Shown: positions 1,180 through 32,325 of the stretch, piece by piece
Position numbering within the stretch: the first letter of the stretch is position 1
Layout: the number at the start of each line of letters is the position of its first letter
Notes under the pieces: model-generated
What the model saw: the letters and a program-made list of their open reading frames with translations, nothing else
Database searches by the model: none
What the model was told of the DNA's origin: nothing
From: a bacterium
GTDB taxonomy: Bacteria > Babelota > Babeliae > Babelales > JAUWHS01
Length of the DNA stretch: 33,744 nucleotides
Direction of reading: 5' to 3'
NCBI GenBank assembly: GCA_043818275.1
Contig: JBDRFY010000073.1
Location: forward strand, 1-33,744
Translations under genes and position numbers: made by a program

Positions 1180-2277
1180 CTATATTATAACTCCACAACC
1201 TAAACAAATTTCATCATCATAAAAAACAGCAAATTGCCCTGGAGCTATTCCCTGATCTCTTTTATCGATCCTTACAATTCCTAAATTTTCATTTTCAAAA
1301 TTCAATTCACAATTATAAAATTGCTCTCCATGCCTTACTTTTACTTGTAAATTGTTCTTATCAGGCTTTTGACCTGAAATCCAGTTAAAATTTGAAACAT
1401 TAAAAGTATCCCGCGCTTTATCTGATGAAAAATAATTTTTGGAAATATAAACAATATTTTTGGCCGTATCTTTGTCTACTACATACCAGGGACCGCCCGA
1501 AAGACCAATTCCTTTTCGTTGCCCAATCGTGTAATACCAAAAGCCTTCATGTTCACCAATAATTTTTCTTGTTTCAAATTCAATCAAATTACCTTTTTTA
1601 ATACCCAAATGATGTTTCAAAAATTCGTCATATTTAATTTTTCCCAAAAAACAAATTCCCTGACTGTCTTTTCTTTGTTTTGTTGCTAAATCAAATTTTT
1701 CAGCCAAAACTCTCACCTCAGATTTTAAAAGATTTCCAATTGGAAACATAGCCCGCGCAAGCTGTTTCTGATTTAGAAGCGATAAAAAATAAGTCTGATC
1801 TTTAACTTTATCTTTTGCTTTTTTTAATAAAAATTTTCCATTAATTTTCTTTTCCCCTGAGGGGAACCCGCCGAAGCCTTGTGCGAAGGCTGGGCTAACT
1901 TGAGCGTAATGACCTGTTGCAACATGCTCAAAACTCGGATCAATTTTATCGAAAAAAGCTCCAAACTTAATTTGTTGATTACAAAATAAATCAGGACTTG
2001 GAGTGCGACCATTTTTTACTTCATTAATTGCATAAGAAACAACAGATGACCAATATTCTTTTTGCAAAGAAAGAACCTGAAATGGAACATTTAATTGCTC
2101 ACAAACTTTTTCAACATATTCCAAATCTTGTCTCCAGGGACATTCACCCAAATGAGACAATTCTTCTTCTAACCAAATCTTTAAATAAAAGGCGGTAATA
2201 TTATGTCCCTGATCTTTTAATAATTTTAAAGAAACAGAGCTATCAACCCCACCAGAAAATAATACGGCTATTTTCAT
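1180..2277 (-). CDS. mnmA: tRNA 2-thiouridine(34) synthase MnmA, with a 14-aa palindrome-derived insertion
   Basis: Motifs SGGVDS, PDLFCN, ATGHYA, KDQTYFL, DSQGICF, YTIGQRKG and APGQFAVFY. Start taken at MKIAVL. Confidence 0.97.
   Translation of the reverse strand: MKIAVLFSGGVDSSVSLKLLKDQGHNITAFYLKIWLEEELSHLGECPWRQDLEYVEKVCEQLNVPFQVLSLQKEYWSSVVSYAINEVKNGRTPSPDLFCNQQIKFGAFFDKIDPSFEHVATGHYAQVSPAFAQGFGGFPSGEKKINGKFLLKKAKDKVKDQTYFLSLLNQKQLARAMFPIGNLLKSEVRVLAEKFDLATKQRKDSQGICFLGKIKYDEFLKHHLGIKKGNLIEFETRKIIGEHEGFWYYTIGQRKGIGLSGGPWYVVDKDTAKNIVYISKNYFSSDKARDTFNVSNFNWISGQKPDKNNLQVKVRHGEQFYNCELNFENENLGIVRIDKRDQGIAPGQFAVFYDDEICLGCGVII
1855..1896 (+). repeat. Family A GC-rich palindrome plus small hairpin, in frame within mnmA
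   Basis: CCCGCC-GAA-GCCTTGTGC-GAA-GGCTGGG (1867-1894) next to TTCCCC-TGA-GGGGAA (1852-1866). Encodes SPAFAQGFGGFPSG in MnmA. Confidence 0.85.
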
Positions 2278-2346
2278 AAACTCATTTCTTATATAAACAA
2301 ACAATTAATTAAAATGAAAATATAACATAATAGAGCTAAAATATGA

Positions 2347-8636: not shown

Positions 8637-9896
8637 TCAAAAGAAGTCTCCAACCCAGGATCTCATTCTTTTAAATACATTTTTAACTAATGAAACATCA
8701 GAACCATATTCGAATTCCACATTCTTTTTTCTTATCGAATAAAGTAATAAACCATAACCGGTGGAATAAATTGGGCTTTTCAATAAATCCGGAATATTAG
8801 AAGTTGTTTCTTTTGATTCAAAAGATTCTGGCTGACCTATCCGAACCTGCATTTTAAATTTTTTCAACGCAATTTCTTTCATACCAGCCAACAACGAGCC
8901 ACCTCCAGTCAAAACAATTCCAGATGGCATAAAAGATTTTAATTTAAACTTTAAAATTTCATCAAAAAGCAATTCGTAAATTTCTTCAGCCCTGGGATTT
9001 AAAATTTCATACAAAGAATAAGTTTCAATCTTTTTCTTTCCTCCTTCATATTCCAAATTAATTTCAACTTTATCCTTATCAAGATCCAGATAATTTTCTT
9101 CATTTACAAAACCATATAAACGTTTTAATTCTTCAGCCTTTTTAATAGGAATACCAAGGCCAATTGCTAGATCATTTGTAAAATGATTTCCGGCAAAAGG
9201 CAAAACTTTTGTATGAATTATTCTGCTGTCTTTATAAACTGCAAAATCTGATGTTCCTCCACCAATATCCAAAATTCCAACGCCCAACTCTTTTTCTGAT
9301 GAAGAAAGAACCGCTTCTGCTGATGCCAATTGTTCCAAAACTAAATCCTGAACCCTAATCCCTGCAAGTTCACAAGCTCTGATAATATTTTGAGCTGAAG
9401 ATATCGCACCTGTAATTACATGAACCTGGGCCTCAAGTCTTACACCATACATTCCCAAAGAATCCAAAACAAATTCCTGACCGTCAACTCTAAAATACTG
9501 TGGCAAAACATGCAAAACTTCCTGATCCTGAGAAATCGCAACCGCTTTTGCAGATTCTATTACCCTGTCAATATCATCTTGTGTAATTTCCTGACCACGA
9601 ATAGCAACAACTCCGGTTGAATTAAATGATTTTATATGCCCACCGGAAATTCCGATTATTGCACTTTCAATTTTTATACCAGCTATTTTTTCCGCTTCAA
9701 CTACAGCCTTTTTAATTGATGTAACTGTTTTTGCAATATTGACAACAACTCCTTTTTTCAAGCCCTCTGATGGATGTTGTCCAACACCAAGAATTTCTAT
9801 GTTTCCCTTGTAGTCAAGACTGGCAATCAAAACACAAATCTTGGTCGTTCCAATATCAATTGCCACCAAATTTTTATTTAAAAACTTACCAGCCAT
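8637..9896 (-). CDS. ftsA: Cell division protein FtsA
   Basis: DIGTTKI, GLKKGVV, DIGGGTSD and VLTGGGS. Confidence 0.98.
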   Translation of the reverse strand: MAGKFLNKNLVAIDIGTTKICVLIASLDYKGNIEILGVGQHPSEGLKKGVVVNIAKTVTSIKKAVVEAEKIAGIKIESAIIGISGGHIKSFNSTGVVAIRGQEITQDDIDRVIESAKAVAISQDQEVLHVLPQYFRVDGQEFVLDSLGMYGVRLEAQVHVITGAISSAQNIIRACELAGIRVQDLVLEQLASAEAVLSSSEKELGVGILDIGGGTSDFAVYKDSRIIHTKVLPFAGNHFTNDLAIGLGIPIKKAEELKRLYGFVNEENYLDLDKDKVEINLEYEGGKKKIETYSLYEILNPRAEEIYELLFDEILKFKLKSFMPSGIVLTGGGSLLAGMKEIALKKFKMQVRIGQPESFESKETTSNIPDLLKSPIYSTGYGLLLYSIRKKNVEFEYGSDVSLVKNVFKRMRSWVGDFF

Positions 9897-11100: not shown

Positions 11101-11302
11101 TTTAGCCCCTTTGGGGCTAAAGTTAATAGCCTCGGGTTTTAACCCGTGGTTATAAATTAACCCAAAATAATTCGTGCCATTTTATGGTACGAAAGAATTT
11201 TTTCCAATTTCTACCACCGCCATAAATGGGGTGGCTATATATTCTTTAATTAAAACCACGGGTTAAAACCCGAGGCTAATAACTATAACCCTTAACAGGG
11301 TT
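11101..11302. repeat. REP/REPIN-like composite inverted repeat
   Basis: 31-bp inverted pair 11121-11151 / 11254-11284 (1 mismatch), each with an internal CGGGTT/AACCCG hairpin. Outer mini-hairpins at 11101-11121 and 11287-11302. Inner hairpins at 11171-11193 and 11214-11234. Confidence 0.85.
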
Positions 11303-12991: not shown

Positions 12992-13068
12992 GGGCGAATA
13001 GCTCAGCTGGTTAGAGCACCTGCCTTACAAGCAGGGGGTCACAGGTTCGAATCCTGTTTCGCCCACCA
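12992..13068 (+). tRNA. tRNA-Val (TAC)
   Basis: Acceptor GGGCGAA/TTCGCCC, anticodon arm CCTGC-CTTACAA-GCAGG, GGTTCGAATCC T-arm and encoded CCA. Confidence 0.98.
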
Positions 13069-13285
13069 GCCTCTGCTTGCTTCGCAAGCTACGGCTGGGC
13101 AGGCCAGCTTTTTAAATTGAATTGATATTAATAGAACCATATTGCGAAGACTGTCCGGCGTAGTAAAACTTACATTAAAACTTAGTAGTTCGAAGACGGA
13201 CTGGCACGGCCAGTTTATCCGGCGAAACCTTAGCAAAGTCGGACCTGTCCCGACGAAGTACCGCTCCTTGCGGCACGAAGTCGGA
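13066..13285. repeat. Cluster of four family A palindromes downstream of tRNA-Val
   Basis: Copies at 13066-13108 (minus; stem uses the tRNA CCA), 13151-13200, 13218-13243 and 13244-13285. All follow stem-G(A/T)A-hairpin-(purine-rich, usually GAA)-stem. Confidence 0.85.
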
Positions 13286-13337: not shown

Positions 13338-13413
13338 TCCCCGATAGCTCAGTTGGTAGAGCAAACGACTGTTAATCGTTGGGTCGCAGGTTCGAGTCCT
13401 GCTCGGGGAGCCA
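13338..13413 (+). tRNA. tRNA-Asn (GTT)
   Basis: Acceptor TCCCCGA/TCGGGGA, anticodon arm AACGA-CTGTTAA-TCGTT, GGTTCGAGTCC and encoded CCA. Confidence 0.98.
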
Positions 13414-13581
13414 GCTTTCGCTCTAACGAGCTTCAGCTGGGCAGGCCAGCCAATTAATAAAATTAATATTAATCGAAAAGTTAAGCGAAAGATGCCTTTC
13501 ACTCCATAACTCATTAAAGCAAAGGCGGAAACAAATGGCCTATGAATTTGCCTGCCACGCCGAAGCCTTGGCGCAGGCGGG
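13411..13581. repeat. Family A palindromes downstream of tRNA-Asn
   Basis: CCAGCT-TTC-GCTC-TAAC-GAGC-TTC-AGCTGG-GCAGGCCAGC (13411-13450), a degenerate copy near 13485-13529, and CCTGCCACGCC-GAA-GCCTTGGC-GCA-GGCGGG (13551-13581). Confidence 0.85.
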
Positions 13582-20141: not shown

Positions 20142-20462
20142 TTAACTTTTCTTTATTTTTCCATCCCTCATAACTTTAATTTCATATCCGCCTACGCCAA
20201 GCTTCCCGACTTTGCCATGCTTCGTCGAGGCGAGCGGCGGGACAGGTTCCATTTTAAGCTCAGTATTTTTTACAGTTTCGTTATTTGAACGGTTGTTGGT
20301 TCTTTTGTTCTCGGTTTCACCAGAAAGTCTATTTTCAATATCTGTTACTTTTTCAACCAGAATATTAAAACCCTTTTCTAACAAATCTACTTTTTGTTCG
20401 AGTGTCGATTTAGCACTTAAACCAGCAACTAAAAACGGTAATAACAAAATAAGCTTTTTCAT
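20142..20462 (-). CDS. Small secreted coiled-coil protein with a nested palindrome insertion
   Basis: Signal peptide MKKLILLL behind GGAGG; LEQKVDLLE coiled coil; 20 aa encoded by repeats. Confidence 0.8.
   Translation of the reverse strand: MKKLILLLPFLVAGLSAKSTLEQKVDLLEKGFNILVEKVTDIENRLSGETENKRTNNRSNNETVKNTELKMEPVPPLASTKHGKVGKLGVGGYEIKVMRDGKIKKS
20187..20246 (-). repeat. Two nested 30-bp family A palindromes, in frame
   Basis: Minus strand: CCTGTCCCGCCG[CTCGCCTCGACGAAGCATGGCAAAGTCGGG]AAGCTTGGCGTAGGCGGA = PVPPLASTKHGKVGKLGVGG. Confidence 0.85.
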
Positions 20463-28383: not shown

Positions 28384-30255
28384 TTAATTAGCCACAGGCT
28401 CAAATTCGACAGGTTCAACATCCTCTTTACCTGTACCCGTCAAAACTTCTTTTGTAACGCTTTTAAATATCCTGGTTGTTGTACTGTCTTCAGGTTTTTC
28501 TTCGAGGTGTTTTTTCTTAAAATCTTCCAACTCTTCTCCTACTAATTCTTTGCCCTTTTCCCCTATTTTTTTAACTTTTGATTTAACCCATTCAACAACT
28601 TTACTCTTTTCTGGCTCAGGTTCTTTTTCCTCTTCAACCTTTTTTTCTATATCAACTTTTTCTGTTTCAACAATCACTTCCGGTTTTACAATCCCTTCTT
28701 TTTCTGATTTTTGTTCGGCGGTAATTTCTGTTTTTTTAAGATTTTCACCCCGATCATCCTCCCTTCGACTACGCTCAGGGTGAACGGGTTGAAGAATCGC
28801 AACAGGCAAAGGAATTAAAATGTCTTTTTTAGCAATTCCTTCTGGTAAAAAACCAAATATTTTTATCAAATCTATTTCATCAAATTTTGGAGTATGTTGT
28901 TTAATGAGATCTACTGAATTTTGAACAAAACCATAAACTGTATTTTGGCCATCGACAGGAATAAATACGCTTCGTGATTTTAATGTTTTTTCCATTTCAG
29001 ATTTTGCCAGTTCTATTTCTTCTTTTGCTTTTTGAGTTTTTTCAAAGGCTAATATAACTTCTTTATCATCCCGATCACCCTCCCTTCGACTAAGCTCAGG
29101 GTGAACGGATCGAAAGGCATCCTCATTTGCCTTTTGAGCTTGTTCAACCGACAACTCAAATTCGTCAGAATTAAATTCTTCTCCGGACTGTTTTTTATCG
29201 TAAAGTTCTTTTGAATGTTTTTCTGCTTCCTGATAAGCCTTTTCAGCCTCCTGCATTTTTTCCTGATACGGTTTGATAAAATTTTTACCAACAAAAGAAA
29301 TTTCATCACCTTTTAAATCAATAATTTTTATTGGTGTTGCTGATTCCAAAATTAATTTATTCGCTTTAGGCAAAATATTTTGTCTCACATAAGCTGCGAC
29401 CAGATTTAATAAATCATTTGCATCTTGAATGGATAATTCCTGATCTTCGGATAATTTTAATAAATCGTTTGGAGTTATAATTTTTTCCGCCACAACCTTT
29501 TCTTGATCAACGATTTTTTCTTTTTTAGGTTCTTCTGATATTGTTTCAGGTTTAGTCGCTTCAGGCTTTGTAGCTTCTGATTCTTTAAATTCTTCACCGG
29601 AAACTTCACCAACAGGCATTTCAGTTTTATCTTCATCTTTTTTTAATAACGCTTCATCCCATGAAGTGAATTCTGTTACATCTCCAGCCTCAAGCGCTGC
29701 GGCCCCTGCAGTTCCAAGGCCCGCAAGACCAACACTTGCTGTGCCTAAGCCGCCTAAACCCAGTCCACCTCCAGCGCCAACCCCTGTTCCAACTCCAGTA
29801 GATTTTTTAACGGAAGGTCTAATTAAACTTTTGAGCAAATTATATTCATAATGTTCAATTATTTCACTCGCTTTTCCTACATCTGGCGCTAACTTATCAT
29901 ATTGTTTTTGTAAGCGTTTTAATTTTTCTTCAGCAGCCTTTTTTTCTTCTCCTTGTTTTTTTTCAATATCATTTTTCTTTTGATTTATTTTTTCATTTAA
30001 AGTTCTAAATGTTTCAACCATTTCATCGTAAACTTGCTTGCTAGATTTACCATGTACCTTTTCTGATTTTTGCGTATCTGTTAAAGCTGATGAATATTTT
30101 ATATTCTCATATGTCTTATCAACTTTACGAGGCGCAAATTTTTTAATTATTCCCCTTTTTTCCTTGGCGTTTACATTTACAAAAGAAAAAATTATTAACA
30201 CCCCCCACAAAAAAATTACTTTTTTAAAATATTTAATCAAACAAAATTTATACAT
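28384..30255 (-). CDS. Large secreted acidic coiled-coil protein with a Gly-rich segment and two palindrome insertions
   Basis: 623-aa ORF with a signal peptide, GVGAGGGLGLGG segment, E/K-rich composition, and VHPE(L/R)SRRE(G/D)DR twice. Confidence 0.88.
   Translation of the reverse strand: MYKFCLIKYFKKVIFLWGVLIIFSFVNVNAKEKRGIIKKFAPRKVDKTYENIKYSSALTDTQKSEKVHGKSSKQVYDEMVETFRTLNEKINQKKNDIEKKQGEEKKAAEEKLKRLQKQYDKLAPDVGKASEIIEHYEYNLLKSLIRPSVKKSTGVGTGVGAGGGLGLGGLGTASVGLAGLGTAGAAALEAGDVTEFTSWDEALLKKDEDKTEMPVGEVSGEEFKESEATKPEATKPETISEEPKKEKIVDQEKVVAEKIITPNDLLKLSEDQELSIQDANDLLNLVAAYVRQNILPKANKLILESATPIKIIDLKGDEISFVGKNFIKPYQEKMQEAEKAYQEAEKHSKELYDKKQSGEEFNSDEFELSVEQAQKANEDAFRSVHPELSRREGDRDDKEVILAFEKTQKAKEEIELAKSEMEKTLKSRSVFIPVDGQNTVYGFVQNSVDLIKQHTPKFDEIDLIKIFGFLPEGIAKKDILIPLPVAILQPVHPERSRREDDRGENLKKTEITAEQKSEKEGIVKPEVIVETEKVDIEKKVEEEKEPEPEKSKVVEWVKSKVKKIGEKGKELVGEELEDFKKKHLEEKPEDSTTTRIFKSVTKEVLTGTGKEDVEPVEFEPVAN
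28749..28787. repeat. Family B 39-bp palindrome, in frame (copy 1)
   Basis: CCCGATCATCCTCCCTTCGACTACGCTCAGGGTGAACGG; 37/39 identical to 29070-29108. Confidence 0.9.
29070..29108. repeat. Family B 39-bp palindrome, in frame (copy 2)
   Basis: CCCGATCACCCTCCCTTCGACTAAGCTCAGGGTGAACGG; flanks unrelated to copy 1. Confidence 0.9.
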
Positions 30256-30451: not shown

Positions 30452-31237
30452 TTATATGTTATATCTTTTAAGATTTTCTTCTCTTTTAGCATTAAAAGTT
30501 TCAACAGAAATTTTATCGTCATCAATAACAAACTTGTTAACTTCTTCTAAAGCATATTTCAAATCCAAAAAACTATATTTTTCGCCTGGATTAAATCCAA
30601 CAAAAAAATTTTCTAACTCTTTATTTTGCAAATCTTTAATATAATGCATATAGTTTGTCAAATTTTTAAAATCATCCACGAACATTAATATCAAAATTAT
30701 TTCAAACAAATAGGTGTTCTTATGATTAGCAAATAATTTTTTCGCTTCCTCACTATTAAAATATTTATCCCAAACCGTTTGTCCTTGTAAATTTTTTATA
30801 TCTACTCTAGCACCAGCCATAAGCAAATAAGCAAAAAGAGCTTTTTTTGTATAAAGACTATCCATAATATAATGCAATGGTGTATCACCATTATCATCTT
30901 GAATGTTTACATCTGCTTTTTCCTTAAATATTAATTCTTTGATAAATGGGATAGCTTCTTTATAATTATTTTTTGTAAGGTTTACAGACAATGCAACATG
31001 CAAAGGTGTACGTCCTTTATCATCTTGCATATTAATCAATTTACTTTGCGGACAATCTTTATCCTTCAAAATATAACCAACAATAGCTGAATTAAAGGCG
31101 GATTTATCGAAATTTGAAGCCGCTTTATGAATAGGAAATTTATTCCTTCGCCCCAAAAACGCAGAAACATTATTGTTTAACATAGAAACTGCCAACAAAG
31201 CGGCAAGAATTATTTTTTTAAAACTCAACGTATTCAT
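30452..31237 (-). CDS. Secreted ankyrin-repeat protein
   Basis: GRTPLHVA, ADVNIQDDNGDTPLH and GARVDIKN; signal peptide. Start at MNTL behind GGAGG. Confidence 0.92.
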   Translation of the reverse strand: MNTLSFKKIILAALLAVSMLNNNVSAFLGRRNKFPIHKAASNFDKSAFNSAIVGYILKDKDCPQSKLINMQDDKGRTPLHVALSVNLTKNNYKEAIPFIKELIFKEKADVNIQDDNGDTPLHYIMDSLYTKKALFAYLLMAGARVDIKNLQGQTVWDKYFNSEEAKKLFANHKNTYLFEIILILMFVDDFKNLTNYMHYIKDLQNKELENFFVGFNPGEKYSFLDLKYALEEVNKFVIDDDKISVETFNAKREENLKRYNI

Positions 31238-31509
31238 CTCTCTAACCTCCAATTTTGGTTAAATAAAAAACTGACATAAAAACCTTGCTATACTTGCAAC
31301 GAAATCTGTCCTTAGATTCCGCATTTATTTCATATATAAAACTTACCATAAGCCTTTATTTATCGCAAAAGGCCGGTTGCAAGAGTAGCAATTTTGGGCA
31401 AAAATCAAATATTTTTGAAAAAAAGCAAGAAAAAGGGCATATTTTTAGAATAAAAATTTATAAACTTATTCCTCAAGAAACAAGAAATTCTCTTATCGCA
31501 AATGGTCTA

Positions 31510-31590
31510 ATATCATCAAAAGAATAGTGGTTAAAATAGTCCAACAGGGGGAGCCAGTCTTCGCCCTTTGGGCTACGCCTGGCACGGCCA
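31510..31590. repeat. attR-like junction: 34-bp flank, tRNA-Asn 3' fragment and family A palindrome
   Basis: AGTCC-AACAG-GGGGAGCCA then GTC-TTC-GCCC-TTT-GGGC-TAC-GCCTGG-CACGGCCA. The following AT tail resembles the tail after the tRNA-Val element. Confidence 0.75.
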
Positions 31591-31707
31591 TTTTTTTAAT
31601 TGAATTAATATTTATTGAATTAAAAAACGAGAAATAACTTGATTGCAAACAATCAGATACCATCAAATGAACAGTGAGTAAAATAGGCCCCAAAAAACAA
31701 TTATGAT

Positions 31708-32325
31708 TTAATTGCCAATAGCAACAACTCGGGCCAAGGCAGAATCTGTTTCTGTCTTTAACGGTAAAGCAAAAACTTTAAAATTTTTAACATCTAATAA
31801 TTTTTCAAGGTTTGTTAAATTTTCAATAATCAAAATATTATTTTTGAAAAACATTTTATGAATTTCGAATGGATATTTATCTGGTGAGAAAAAATCGATT
31901 CCAATCATTTTAATTTTTTGCTCAATGAGTTTTTGCGCAAAACATGGTGAAAGAATTGGATGATTTTCAAAGTATTCTTGTGAACCAAATTTCTTATCAA
32001 ATCCGGTTAAAATTAAAACAATTAAATCTTTTTTATTTGGCATTTTTTTCAGTAATGATTCATCTATTTTTTTATTTCGCGCGTCGATCAAAAAGCCATT
32101 GCCAATAAATTTATCTACAGAAAAATCAGAAAGTAAAATTTTGGAATTTGTTAAATGACCTGGTCCATCAATATGCGTTCCAACATGCATACCGGTAACT
32201 AATTGCCAGTCATTATACTTATCTTTTTTAAGATTTTTTATTTTTTTAATTGATGCCGGTTCATCAAAACGACAAACCGGCATTATTTTTGTAAATTTGT
32301 GAGTTAAATCAATTATTGTTGTCAT
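31708..32325 (-). CDS. Cyclase family protein (kynurenine formamidase-like)
   Basis: HVGTHIDGPGH, GIDFFSPD, IIENL and ALPLK. Confidence 0.92.
   Translation of the reverse strand: MTTIIDLTHKFTKIMPVCRFDEPASIKKIKNLKKDKYNDWQLVTGMHVGTHIDGPGHLTNSKILLSDFSVDKFIGNGFLIDARNKKIDESLLKKMPNKKDLIVLILTGFDKKFGSQEYFENHPILSPCFAQKLIEQKIKMIGIDFFSPDKYPFEIHKMFFKNNILIIENLTNLEKLLDVKNFKVFALPLKTETDSALARVVAIGN

Follow-up and report, generated by a model that had tools for sequence, protein, structure and literature searches.

The nested hairpin block described here is at positions 20187 to 20246, on the minus strand, of a stretch of 33,744 nucleotides that is referred to throughout as the window and that makes up contig C73 of the host genome (G000). 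This genome is a 1.33-Mb assembly of 92 contigs with a G+C content of 30.8%, and it is 94% complete; 40 of its relatives all have genomes of 0.8-1.9 Mb. The bacterium that carries these hairpins is AT-rich and probably host-dependent. The block is in the 3' part of a small gene for a putative secreted protein (ORF P0001, 20142-20483, minus strand), of 113 aa or, from its MKK start, 106 aa, with a signal-peptide-like N-terminus and a poorly conserved C-terminus. Genes for ankyrin and TPR proteins are found around it. A protein search for homologues of this ORF returned only the ORF itself.

The 60 nt of the block are made up of two nested 30-nt units of a GC-rich hairpin family, family A, and encode 20 aa in frame. 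Read along the minus strand, a 12-nt 5' piece of the outer unit ending in CCG (20235-20246; the leader, the 5' stem arm, and the G of the 5' GAA) is followed by the 30-nt inner unit (20205-20234) and then by the 18-nt 3' piece of the outer unit, which starts with AAG (20187-20204; the AA of the 5' GAA, the 7-nt centre, GTA, and the 3' stem arm). The inner unit has a 5-nt leader and a 25-nt hairpin, with a perfect 6-bp stem, GAA and AAA side loops, and a 7-nt centre. It is lodged in the 5' GAA side loop of the outer unit, and the reading frame is kept. A preliminary description of this DNA had recognised two 30-bp palindromes, one within the other and both in frame, and the arrangement is as it was described there; the units are not perfect palindromes, though, but hairpins with internal loops.

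It had also been claimed that removal of the inner unit restores a canonical outer one, with no obvious target duplication. When each internal segment of 10-58 nt was removed from the 60-mer, giving 1225 deletions, and the remainders were compared by edit distance with 87 intact copies from other places in the genome, the best deletion was one of 30 nt at offset 11 or 12, which leaves a remainder three edits away from the unit at C3:8047-8076. For the deletions neighbouring this parse the edit distance is 4. No target-site duplication is seen at 20187-20246, where the junction is ambiguous by 1 nt, falling either before or after the G of GAA. Both points are therefore upheld. An origin of the inner unit by local duplication of the outer one was rejected, as 10 of the 30 positions differ between them and both are nearer to copies elsewhere in the genome, the nearest being at edit distance 6 for the inner unit and 3 for the outer.

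Family A units share a layout of a 4-nt leader, a 6-bp stem, G(A/T)A, a central hairpin, a second G(A/T)A, and the complementary stem arm. The leader is mostly CNTG, with C-n-T-G as the consensus over the 31 units of alignment A1, and the central mini-hairpin is GCCTTGGC, GCTTTAGC, GTTTTAAC, or a variant of 7-11 nt. Almost any sequence can be found in the stem, while the loops are conserved. At the 3' side the unit ends with the last stem base and at the 5' side it ends 4 nt ahead of the stem. In alignment A1 both sides change in 7 of 9 model pairs; since these units were selected with a pairing filter, the 98.6% of paired cells is partly by construction and a control that uses the loops only gives a fairer picture. 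In this control, the 14-nt consensus of the loop has 260 matches at up to 3 mismatches. Five or more of the six flanking pairs are present in 85 of these, with 39 distinct 5' arms, compared with 20.5 (maximum 32) after the arms are redistributed over the matches. The full architecture is present 27 times in the GC-rich islands of the genome, as opposed to 0.2 times in shuffled islands. The DNA fold energy was no better than that of shuffled sequence for the 60-mer (z -0.31), for the inner unit (z -0.28), or for a second nest, in psd, which is described below (z +0.68), so that no support comes from thermodynamics by itself.

A covariance model, R1, was built from the class of family A units with an 8-nt centre. 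With 150 of 438 candidates scored, there are at least 125 matches to it in this genome at E<=1 and at least 107 at E<0.01. Scored alone, the inner unit reaches 13.1 bits with R1 (E 0.18 in the window), which is weak because of its 7-nt centre and its AAA side loop. Across the order, 120 of 151 genomes are positive at E<=0.001 with at most 48 candidates scored per genome. The copies are in genes and in spacers, in both orientations, and their nearest-neighbour edit distance has a median of 4. Orientation within genes is mixed, and there is no bias with respect to local GC skew (26/53). It had been thought that every unit might be open in all six frames, which is contradicted by the 33 units scanned, only 7 of which are. 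At G000:C39:284-343 two 30-nt units are placed head-to-tail within a 130-aa open frame, with the same leader and stem as the outer unit of the window and another centre. There is also a composite repeat of well over 100 nt, built of several family A hairpins in both orientations, with at least half a dozen copies on contigs C12, C41, C57, C62, C72, C86, and others; one copy is just upstream of the reverse transcriptase gene at C79:793-1488.

Several other family A units are present in the window. The best R1 match, of 35.7 bits, is an intergenic unit on the plus strand at 13552-13581, and on the same strand there are two adjacent family A-type units at 13214-13285 (13214-13243 and 13244-13285), the second of which has a longer central hairpin. 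On the minus strand, family A-type hairpins detected with R1 are found at the 3' ends of tRNA-Val (13066-13102) and tRNA-Asn (13411-13444), and in both cases the CCA is part of the stem. A single unit, also detected with R1, is in mnmA (ORF 1183-2304, minus strand) at 1863-1893 on the plus strand, in frame and antisense. A further family A-type hairpin on the minus strand, at 31554-31586 (R1, 28 bits), has no called tRNA beside it. Here, at 31539-31594, a hairpin of the tRNA-trailer type with the usual AT-rich spacer comes after a stretch that ends like an acceptor end followed by CCA, and this preceding stretch may be a tRNA remnant. Neither ARAGORN nor Rfam identifies an RNA gene at 31539-31594. 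At gathering thresholds Rfam reports two tRNAs only in the window, and at 31150-31750 it gives one weak match to an rRNA model, with 22.1 bits against a gathering score of 60 bits.

Relatives without the nested block were identified. In run X3, from a related population, a 200-nt contig with a depth of 3.6 shows 1 difference from 20147-20187 and 13 from 20261-20409, so that its flanks are 91-97% alike to the window, and 10 other letters are present in place of 20188-20260. In translation, the X3 relative has T-VPRE-YEIK and the window T-ELKME-[20 aa]-YEIK, and the relative is therefore without the insert between conserved GAA and TAT codons. The contigs of runs X1 and X2 do not extend over the nest and are neutral in this respect. 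In G001, which is of the same genus, the host ORF has two homologues, and both of these, with 75 and 86 aa compared with 106 aa, are without the 20 aa. The preliminary description had looked to orthologues with no insert or with one; those with none are represented by the X3 contig and the two G001 homologues, whereas no allele with one unit was found at 20187-20246.

A second nest is in the gene for phosphatidylserine decarboxylase, psd, on contig C56, with units around 9128-9157. Cutting out 30 nt between CCG and AAG (or between CCGA and AG) restores an outer unit with 0 stem mismatches. Exactly 20 residues are absent in all 12 of the 12 aligned orthologues, including that of G001 (70% identity), and removal of the 60 nt leaves an AAA codon at a position where Lys is found in G001 and in most of the 12. 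The stems of this nest are quite unlike those of the nest in the window. The third nest is in mnmA. The family A unit in this gene is common to G000 and G001, with no insert in four other genomes, and in G001 it has received an extra 57-nt inverted dimer, placed unambiguously between the GA and the A of its 5' GAA. The MnmA protein of the window has 64% identity to a Candidatus Babeliales bacterium protein and 76% to a closer match.

In all, there are at least 12 in-frame copies of family A in 10 genes confirmed by Pfam: psd, uvrC (2 copies), alaS, mnmE, glmS, leuS, priA, fic, tilS, and mnmA. The family A-containing inserts of uvrC and glmS in G000 are absent from G001, and at all five of the genic sites compared the occupancy differs between these two species of the genus. 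At residues 480-489 of uvrC (L018, G000:C38:3400-5600) a family A unit apparently takes the place of some six orthologous codons and is not just an addition of 10, which suggests an insertion with a small adjacent deletion. In glmS (L021, G000:C62:57000-59600) there is a second GC-rich insert of 10 aa, near residue 174, which is absent in the same-genus orthologue and is from another hairpin family.

Filled and empty sites are also provided by a second hairpin family, family B. There are 41 empty copies of this family with a loop of 7 or 8 nt, and 9 in which the loop is longer by exactly 30 nt; in these the extra 30 nt are a family A unit with its leader, situated between G and A at the 5' edge of the loop. 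Two more family B loops, of 37 nt, have a leaderless A hairpin and are of another B subtype, and longer B loops contain an A unit plus further hairpins. Two RAYT paralogue loci (C59 and C60), which are about 93% alike, differ by clean hairpin inserts of 56 nt and 42 nt. An inverted A dimer makes up the 56-nt insert, and its landing site, at the C59 locus, is in a small hairpin, immediately behind the 5' arm. Inverted dimers, of 56 nt here and of 57 nt in G001 mnmA, each act as one insert, and 30-nt monomers insert alone too. Within the window there are empty family B hairpins at 28761-28786 and 29082-29107, in an ORF of 623 aa with no Pfam match (28384-30255, minus strand), and family B therefore also occurs inside open frames.

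In each of the three nests found, those of the window, psd, and G001 mnmA, the host unit is interrupted within its 5' GAA, at a point that varies by 1 nt. The excise-and-rescan search for nests permitted any host position and the mnmA nest came from a protein alignment, so the shared site is not an artefact of the search, although the number of nests is three. Target-site duplication is absent from the nests in psd and G001 mnmA as well. Apparent nests in opposite orientation in G000 were discarded, as they are adjacent inverted dimers. In a second genome, G020, a search of 1,194,100 of 1,228,744 bases, with 45 relaxed matches, found no true nest and seven false joins at a tRNA arm. No flanking motif is shared by the insertions into unique sequence (the outer units of psd and the window), nor is there a fixed target tetra- or pentanucleotide for family A, the flanks differing between sites.

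These loci bear on the remaining claims made for the nest. That family A is mobile as a discrete unit agrees with the 9 family B copies that have exactly 30 nt more than the 41 empty ones. That the nest defines the ends of the element is borne out by psd, where loss of 60 nt restores the Lys codon AAA, and by the 10 nt that X3 has for 20188-20260. The GAA proposed as the target position is the one used in all three nests. A common insertion position in nests elsewhere had been suggested as a check, and it is seen in psd and G001 mnmA, while G020 has no nests to add to the three.

These comparisons of sequence show that a family A insertion is the addition of a discrete 30-nt block without target-site duplication, and that the family moves as a discrete unit that tends to land in hairpin loops. 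It is considered likely that the family A unit is a miniature gene-less hairpin element of 30 nt, composed of a 4-nt leader of the CNTG type and a hairpin of about 26 nt, and that it inserts into the 5' GAA of another unit. At 20187-20246, one unit would have been inserted into the 5' GAA side loop of another. Since the unit is 30 nt, each genic insertion adds 10 codons, and insertions causing a frameshift would not survive. In the mechanism that is favoured here, the donor and the target would both be hairpins, extruded as single strands or as cruciforms, which a structure-specific nuclease would cut at the stem-loop junctions, the pieces then being rejoined.

The two units need not have come to this gene separately. 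The whole block of 60 nt could have arrived in one event, as a ready-made composite from a nested donor, in which case the nesting itself would be an older event that took place elsewhere. That the X3 relative lacks both units at once, without a one-unit allele having been seen, would fit with this, as would the movement together of two-unit blocks such as the 57-nt inverted dimer of G001 mnmA and the 56-nt dimer at one RAYT paralogue locus. However, neither the 60-mer nor the inner unit is present a second time in the assembly, although at 94% completeness a donor could be missing from it. The next best match to the inner unit has 9 mismatches and an edit distance of 6, and the stems of the psd nest are quite different. 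Arrival in one event is rather unlikely.

As to what moves family A, the best candidate, and a tentative one, is a group of stand-alone GIY-YIG nucleases of 80-95 aa, the genes of which are bracketed by family A or B hairpins. There are six small GIY-YIG genes in the genome (among them those at C50:67836, C18:26387, and C75:30805) and all six have family A or B hairpins beside them, two being bracketed by inverted family B hairpins. Four of the six come after a tRNA gene or a tRNA-like stretch, with A-type hairpins before three of these four and a trailer-like stretch only before the C6 copy. Matches to GIY-YIG are found in 147 of the 151 genomes of the order, with two or more in 109. Two or more matches are present in 81 of the 88 genomes that have at least five family A copies, compared with 28 of the 63 others, and the counts of family A and GIY-YIG are correlated over the 151 genomes (Spearman 0.59, with at most 48 family A candidates scored per genome); this association, like the gene linkage of 6/6, is partly circular, in that the hairpins are parts of GIY-YIG elements, and the Fisher and Spearman values make it look stronger than it is, the genomes being related to one another. 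In six genomes there are at least 10 family A copies and at most one GIY-YIG match, as in G082 with 31 copies. GIY-YIG enzymes are not known to join DNA.

Another kind of mover, such as a reverse transcriptase, is less likely. Two reverse transcriptase genes (RVT_1) are present in this 1.3-Mb genome, at G000:C16:7283-7906 and C79:793-1488, and an RNA route by way of them is possible. A more specific proposal is that family A units are the gene-less partners of the GIY-YIG nucleases of 80-95 aa, which would recognise the shape of the hairpin and cut the 5' stem-loop junction, in a form of hairpin transposition that is not of the HUH type. As a complete account this is unlikely. If it were true, it would account for the nesting in GAA, for the sites after tRNA CCA, and for the in-frame copies in essential genes across the Dependentiae.

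A dedicated enzyme may not be involved at all. The units could be copied at stalled forks or breaks, by template switching or short-patch gene conversion, with fragile hairpin loops as the favoured places. This would be consistent with the persistence of family A in genomes that have no Y1 genes, and in some with a single GIY-YIG match, and with the diversity of the copies (median edit distance 4) and their lack of a target motif or a strand bias. The conserved flanks of family B could support conversion between filled and empty copies. The borders, however, are exact and recurrent, all 9 of the clean family B cases being longer by 30 nt, the unit ends are constant in unrelated host sequences, and insertions have also occurred in unique coding sequence, where there is no homology to a donor. 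Movement without an enzyme is accordingly rather improbable.

It is likewise unlikely that family A is an ordinary REP or REPIN, moved by RAYT-like Y1 (HUH) transposases through single-stranded hairpin intermediates as in IS200/IS605. The genome does have five Y1 genes of these kinds, one IS200-type gene and four RAYT-like genes (152-162 aa), one of the latter at C59:425. The absence of target duplication, the hairpin-defined ends, the 4-nt tag, and the inverted dimers all fit the REP/RAYT model as it is set out in PMC3733652, where a tetranucleotide, GTAG or CGTC, is conserved at one end. The tag here is CNTG instead, and the RAYT-like genes are flanked not by family A but by another family, family R, which has 35 copies and forms inverted pairs. 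Y1_Tnp matches are present in 52 of the 151 genomes and their presence is unassociated with that of family A (44 of 120 genomes with the family against 8 of 31 without, p 0.3), the counts being weakly related (Spearman 0.22). Of the 71 genomes that have at least 10 family A copies, 44 are without a Y1_Tnp match. The absence of strand bias also speaks against a strict targeting of the lagging-strand template. In the window, at 11134-11271, there is an inverted family R pair with no gene between its copies, which looks like a gene-less derivative.

That the block is not mobile DNA, but a selected coding or mRNA feature of the host gene or an artefact of assembly, is very improbable: a poorly conserved C-terminus would tolerate an extra 20 aa and the contigs of run X1 do not cover the block, but there are 107 or more copies of family A, within genes as well as in spacers and in either orientation, the family is found in 120 of the 151 genomes of the order, relatives without the block exist (the G001 homologues and the X3 contig), and the assembly, which has no second copy of the block, places it within a single open frame of a contig of 33.7 kb.

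Hairpin-defined ends and single-strand transposition without target duplication are features of the IS200/IS605 family, and IS1397 and its relatives are IS elements that insert into the loops of REPs. Family A resembles these in the absence of target duplication, in having ends defined by a hairpin, and in the use of loops as landing sites. It is unlike IS200/IS605 in that it has no fixed target tetranucleotide, no strand bias, and no transposase gene in the unit. It is unlike a MITE as well, with no target-site duplication at the three nests and one hairpin without IS-like ends. IS elements that target REPs are mentioned in PMC3733652.

A functional parallel is found in the GC clusters of yeast mitochondria, such as GC42 (Wu and Hao 2015, PMC4478555), which are small mobile elements that form GC-rich hairpins in a genome of very high A+T content. 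According to that paper, there is selection on the hairpin, the units merge and shuffle, and either an endonuclease or a reverse transcriptase is proposed as the mobiliser. The clusters are described there as having a putative AG target-site duplication and as being mostly between genes. Family A likewise consists of GC-rich hairpins in an AT-rich genome, but it makes no duplication and is often in genes.

Small palindromic repeats in genes have been known since the palindromic elements (RPEs) of Rickettsia. Those elements, attributed to Ogata and colleagues in 2000, are reportedly palindromic repeats that lie in frame in functional genes of an obligate intracellular bacterium with an AT-rich genome. 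The length of RPE-1 is about 100-150 bp. Family A is like the RPEs in its in-frame insertion into protein genes, with copies in psd, mnmA, uvrC, and glmS that are absent from orthologues. A summary of the palindromic in-gene repeats is given in PMC3733652, where the short RPE-4 and RPE-6 are noted as having a CGTC tag. The family A unit, of 30 nt and with a CNTG rather than a CGTC tag, differs from them in size and in the tag.

What the present case contributes is the exact length of the unit, the exact empty sites, the recurrent insertion point, and the negative RAYT result. Family A offers clean material, with an exact 30-nt unit, pairs of filled and empty sites, and three independent nests in the same 3-nt loop; there is also turnover between two species of one genus, and a candidate nuclease other than the usual RAYT. 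With the exact unit, the filled and empty pairs, the nests, and the candidate nuclease, the cut sites and the enzyme are directly testable with oligonucleotides. For the annotation of Dependentiae genomes, it is of consequence that family A copies put blocks of 10 aa into housekeeping proteins and lengthen spurious ORFs. A search of the literature for hairpin repeats in Dependentiae, or for the nesting of one such unit in another, which covered sources other than the supplementary lists of intragenic REPs in PMC3733652, found nothing.

The closest comparison is with the REPs (Bertels and Rainey 2011, PMC3116915; Di Nocera et al. 2013, PMC3733652). These are imperfect hairpins of 20-40 nt that have a high copy number and carry a tag of 4 nt at one of their ends. 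According to Di Nocera et al. (PMC3733652), REPs are also found within genes, often as dimers that code for 20-30 aa and in repair and tRNA synthetase genes; some REP classes have no dedicated transposase, and some RAYT-like genes have unrelated inverted repeats as their flanks, which the family R of this genome resembles. Family A is similar to a REP as a short imperfect palindrome (30 nt) with many copies and a 4-nt tag. It is unlike one in that the stem varies freely while the loops are conserved, in its CNTG tag, in the absence of RAYT flanking or co-occurrence, and in having copies that are intragenic rather than extragenic. The nesting of a unit in the loop of another unit is not described in that paper, where 'nested' is not among the words used. 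Family A works like a REP or a short RPE, but it differs from the REPs in its tag, in its lack of linkage to RAYT genes, and in its location, which is not extragenic.
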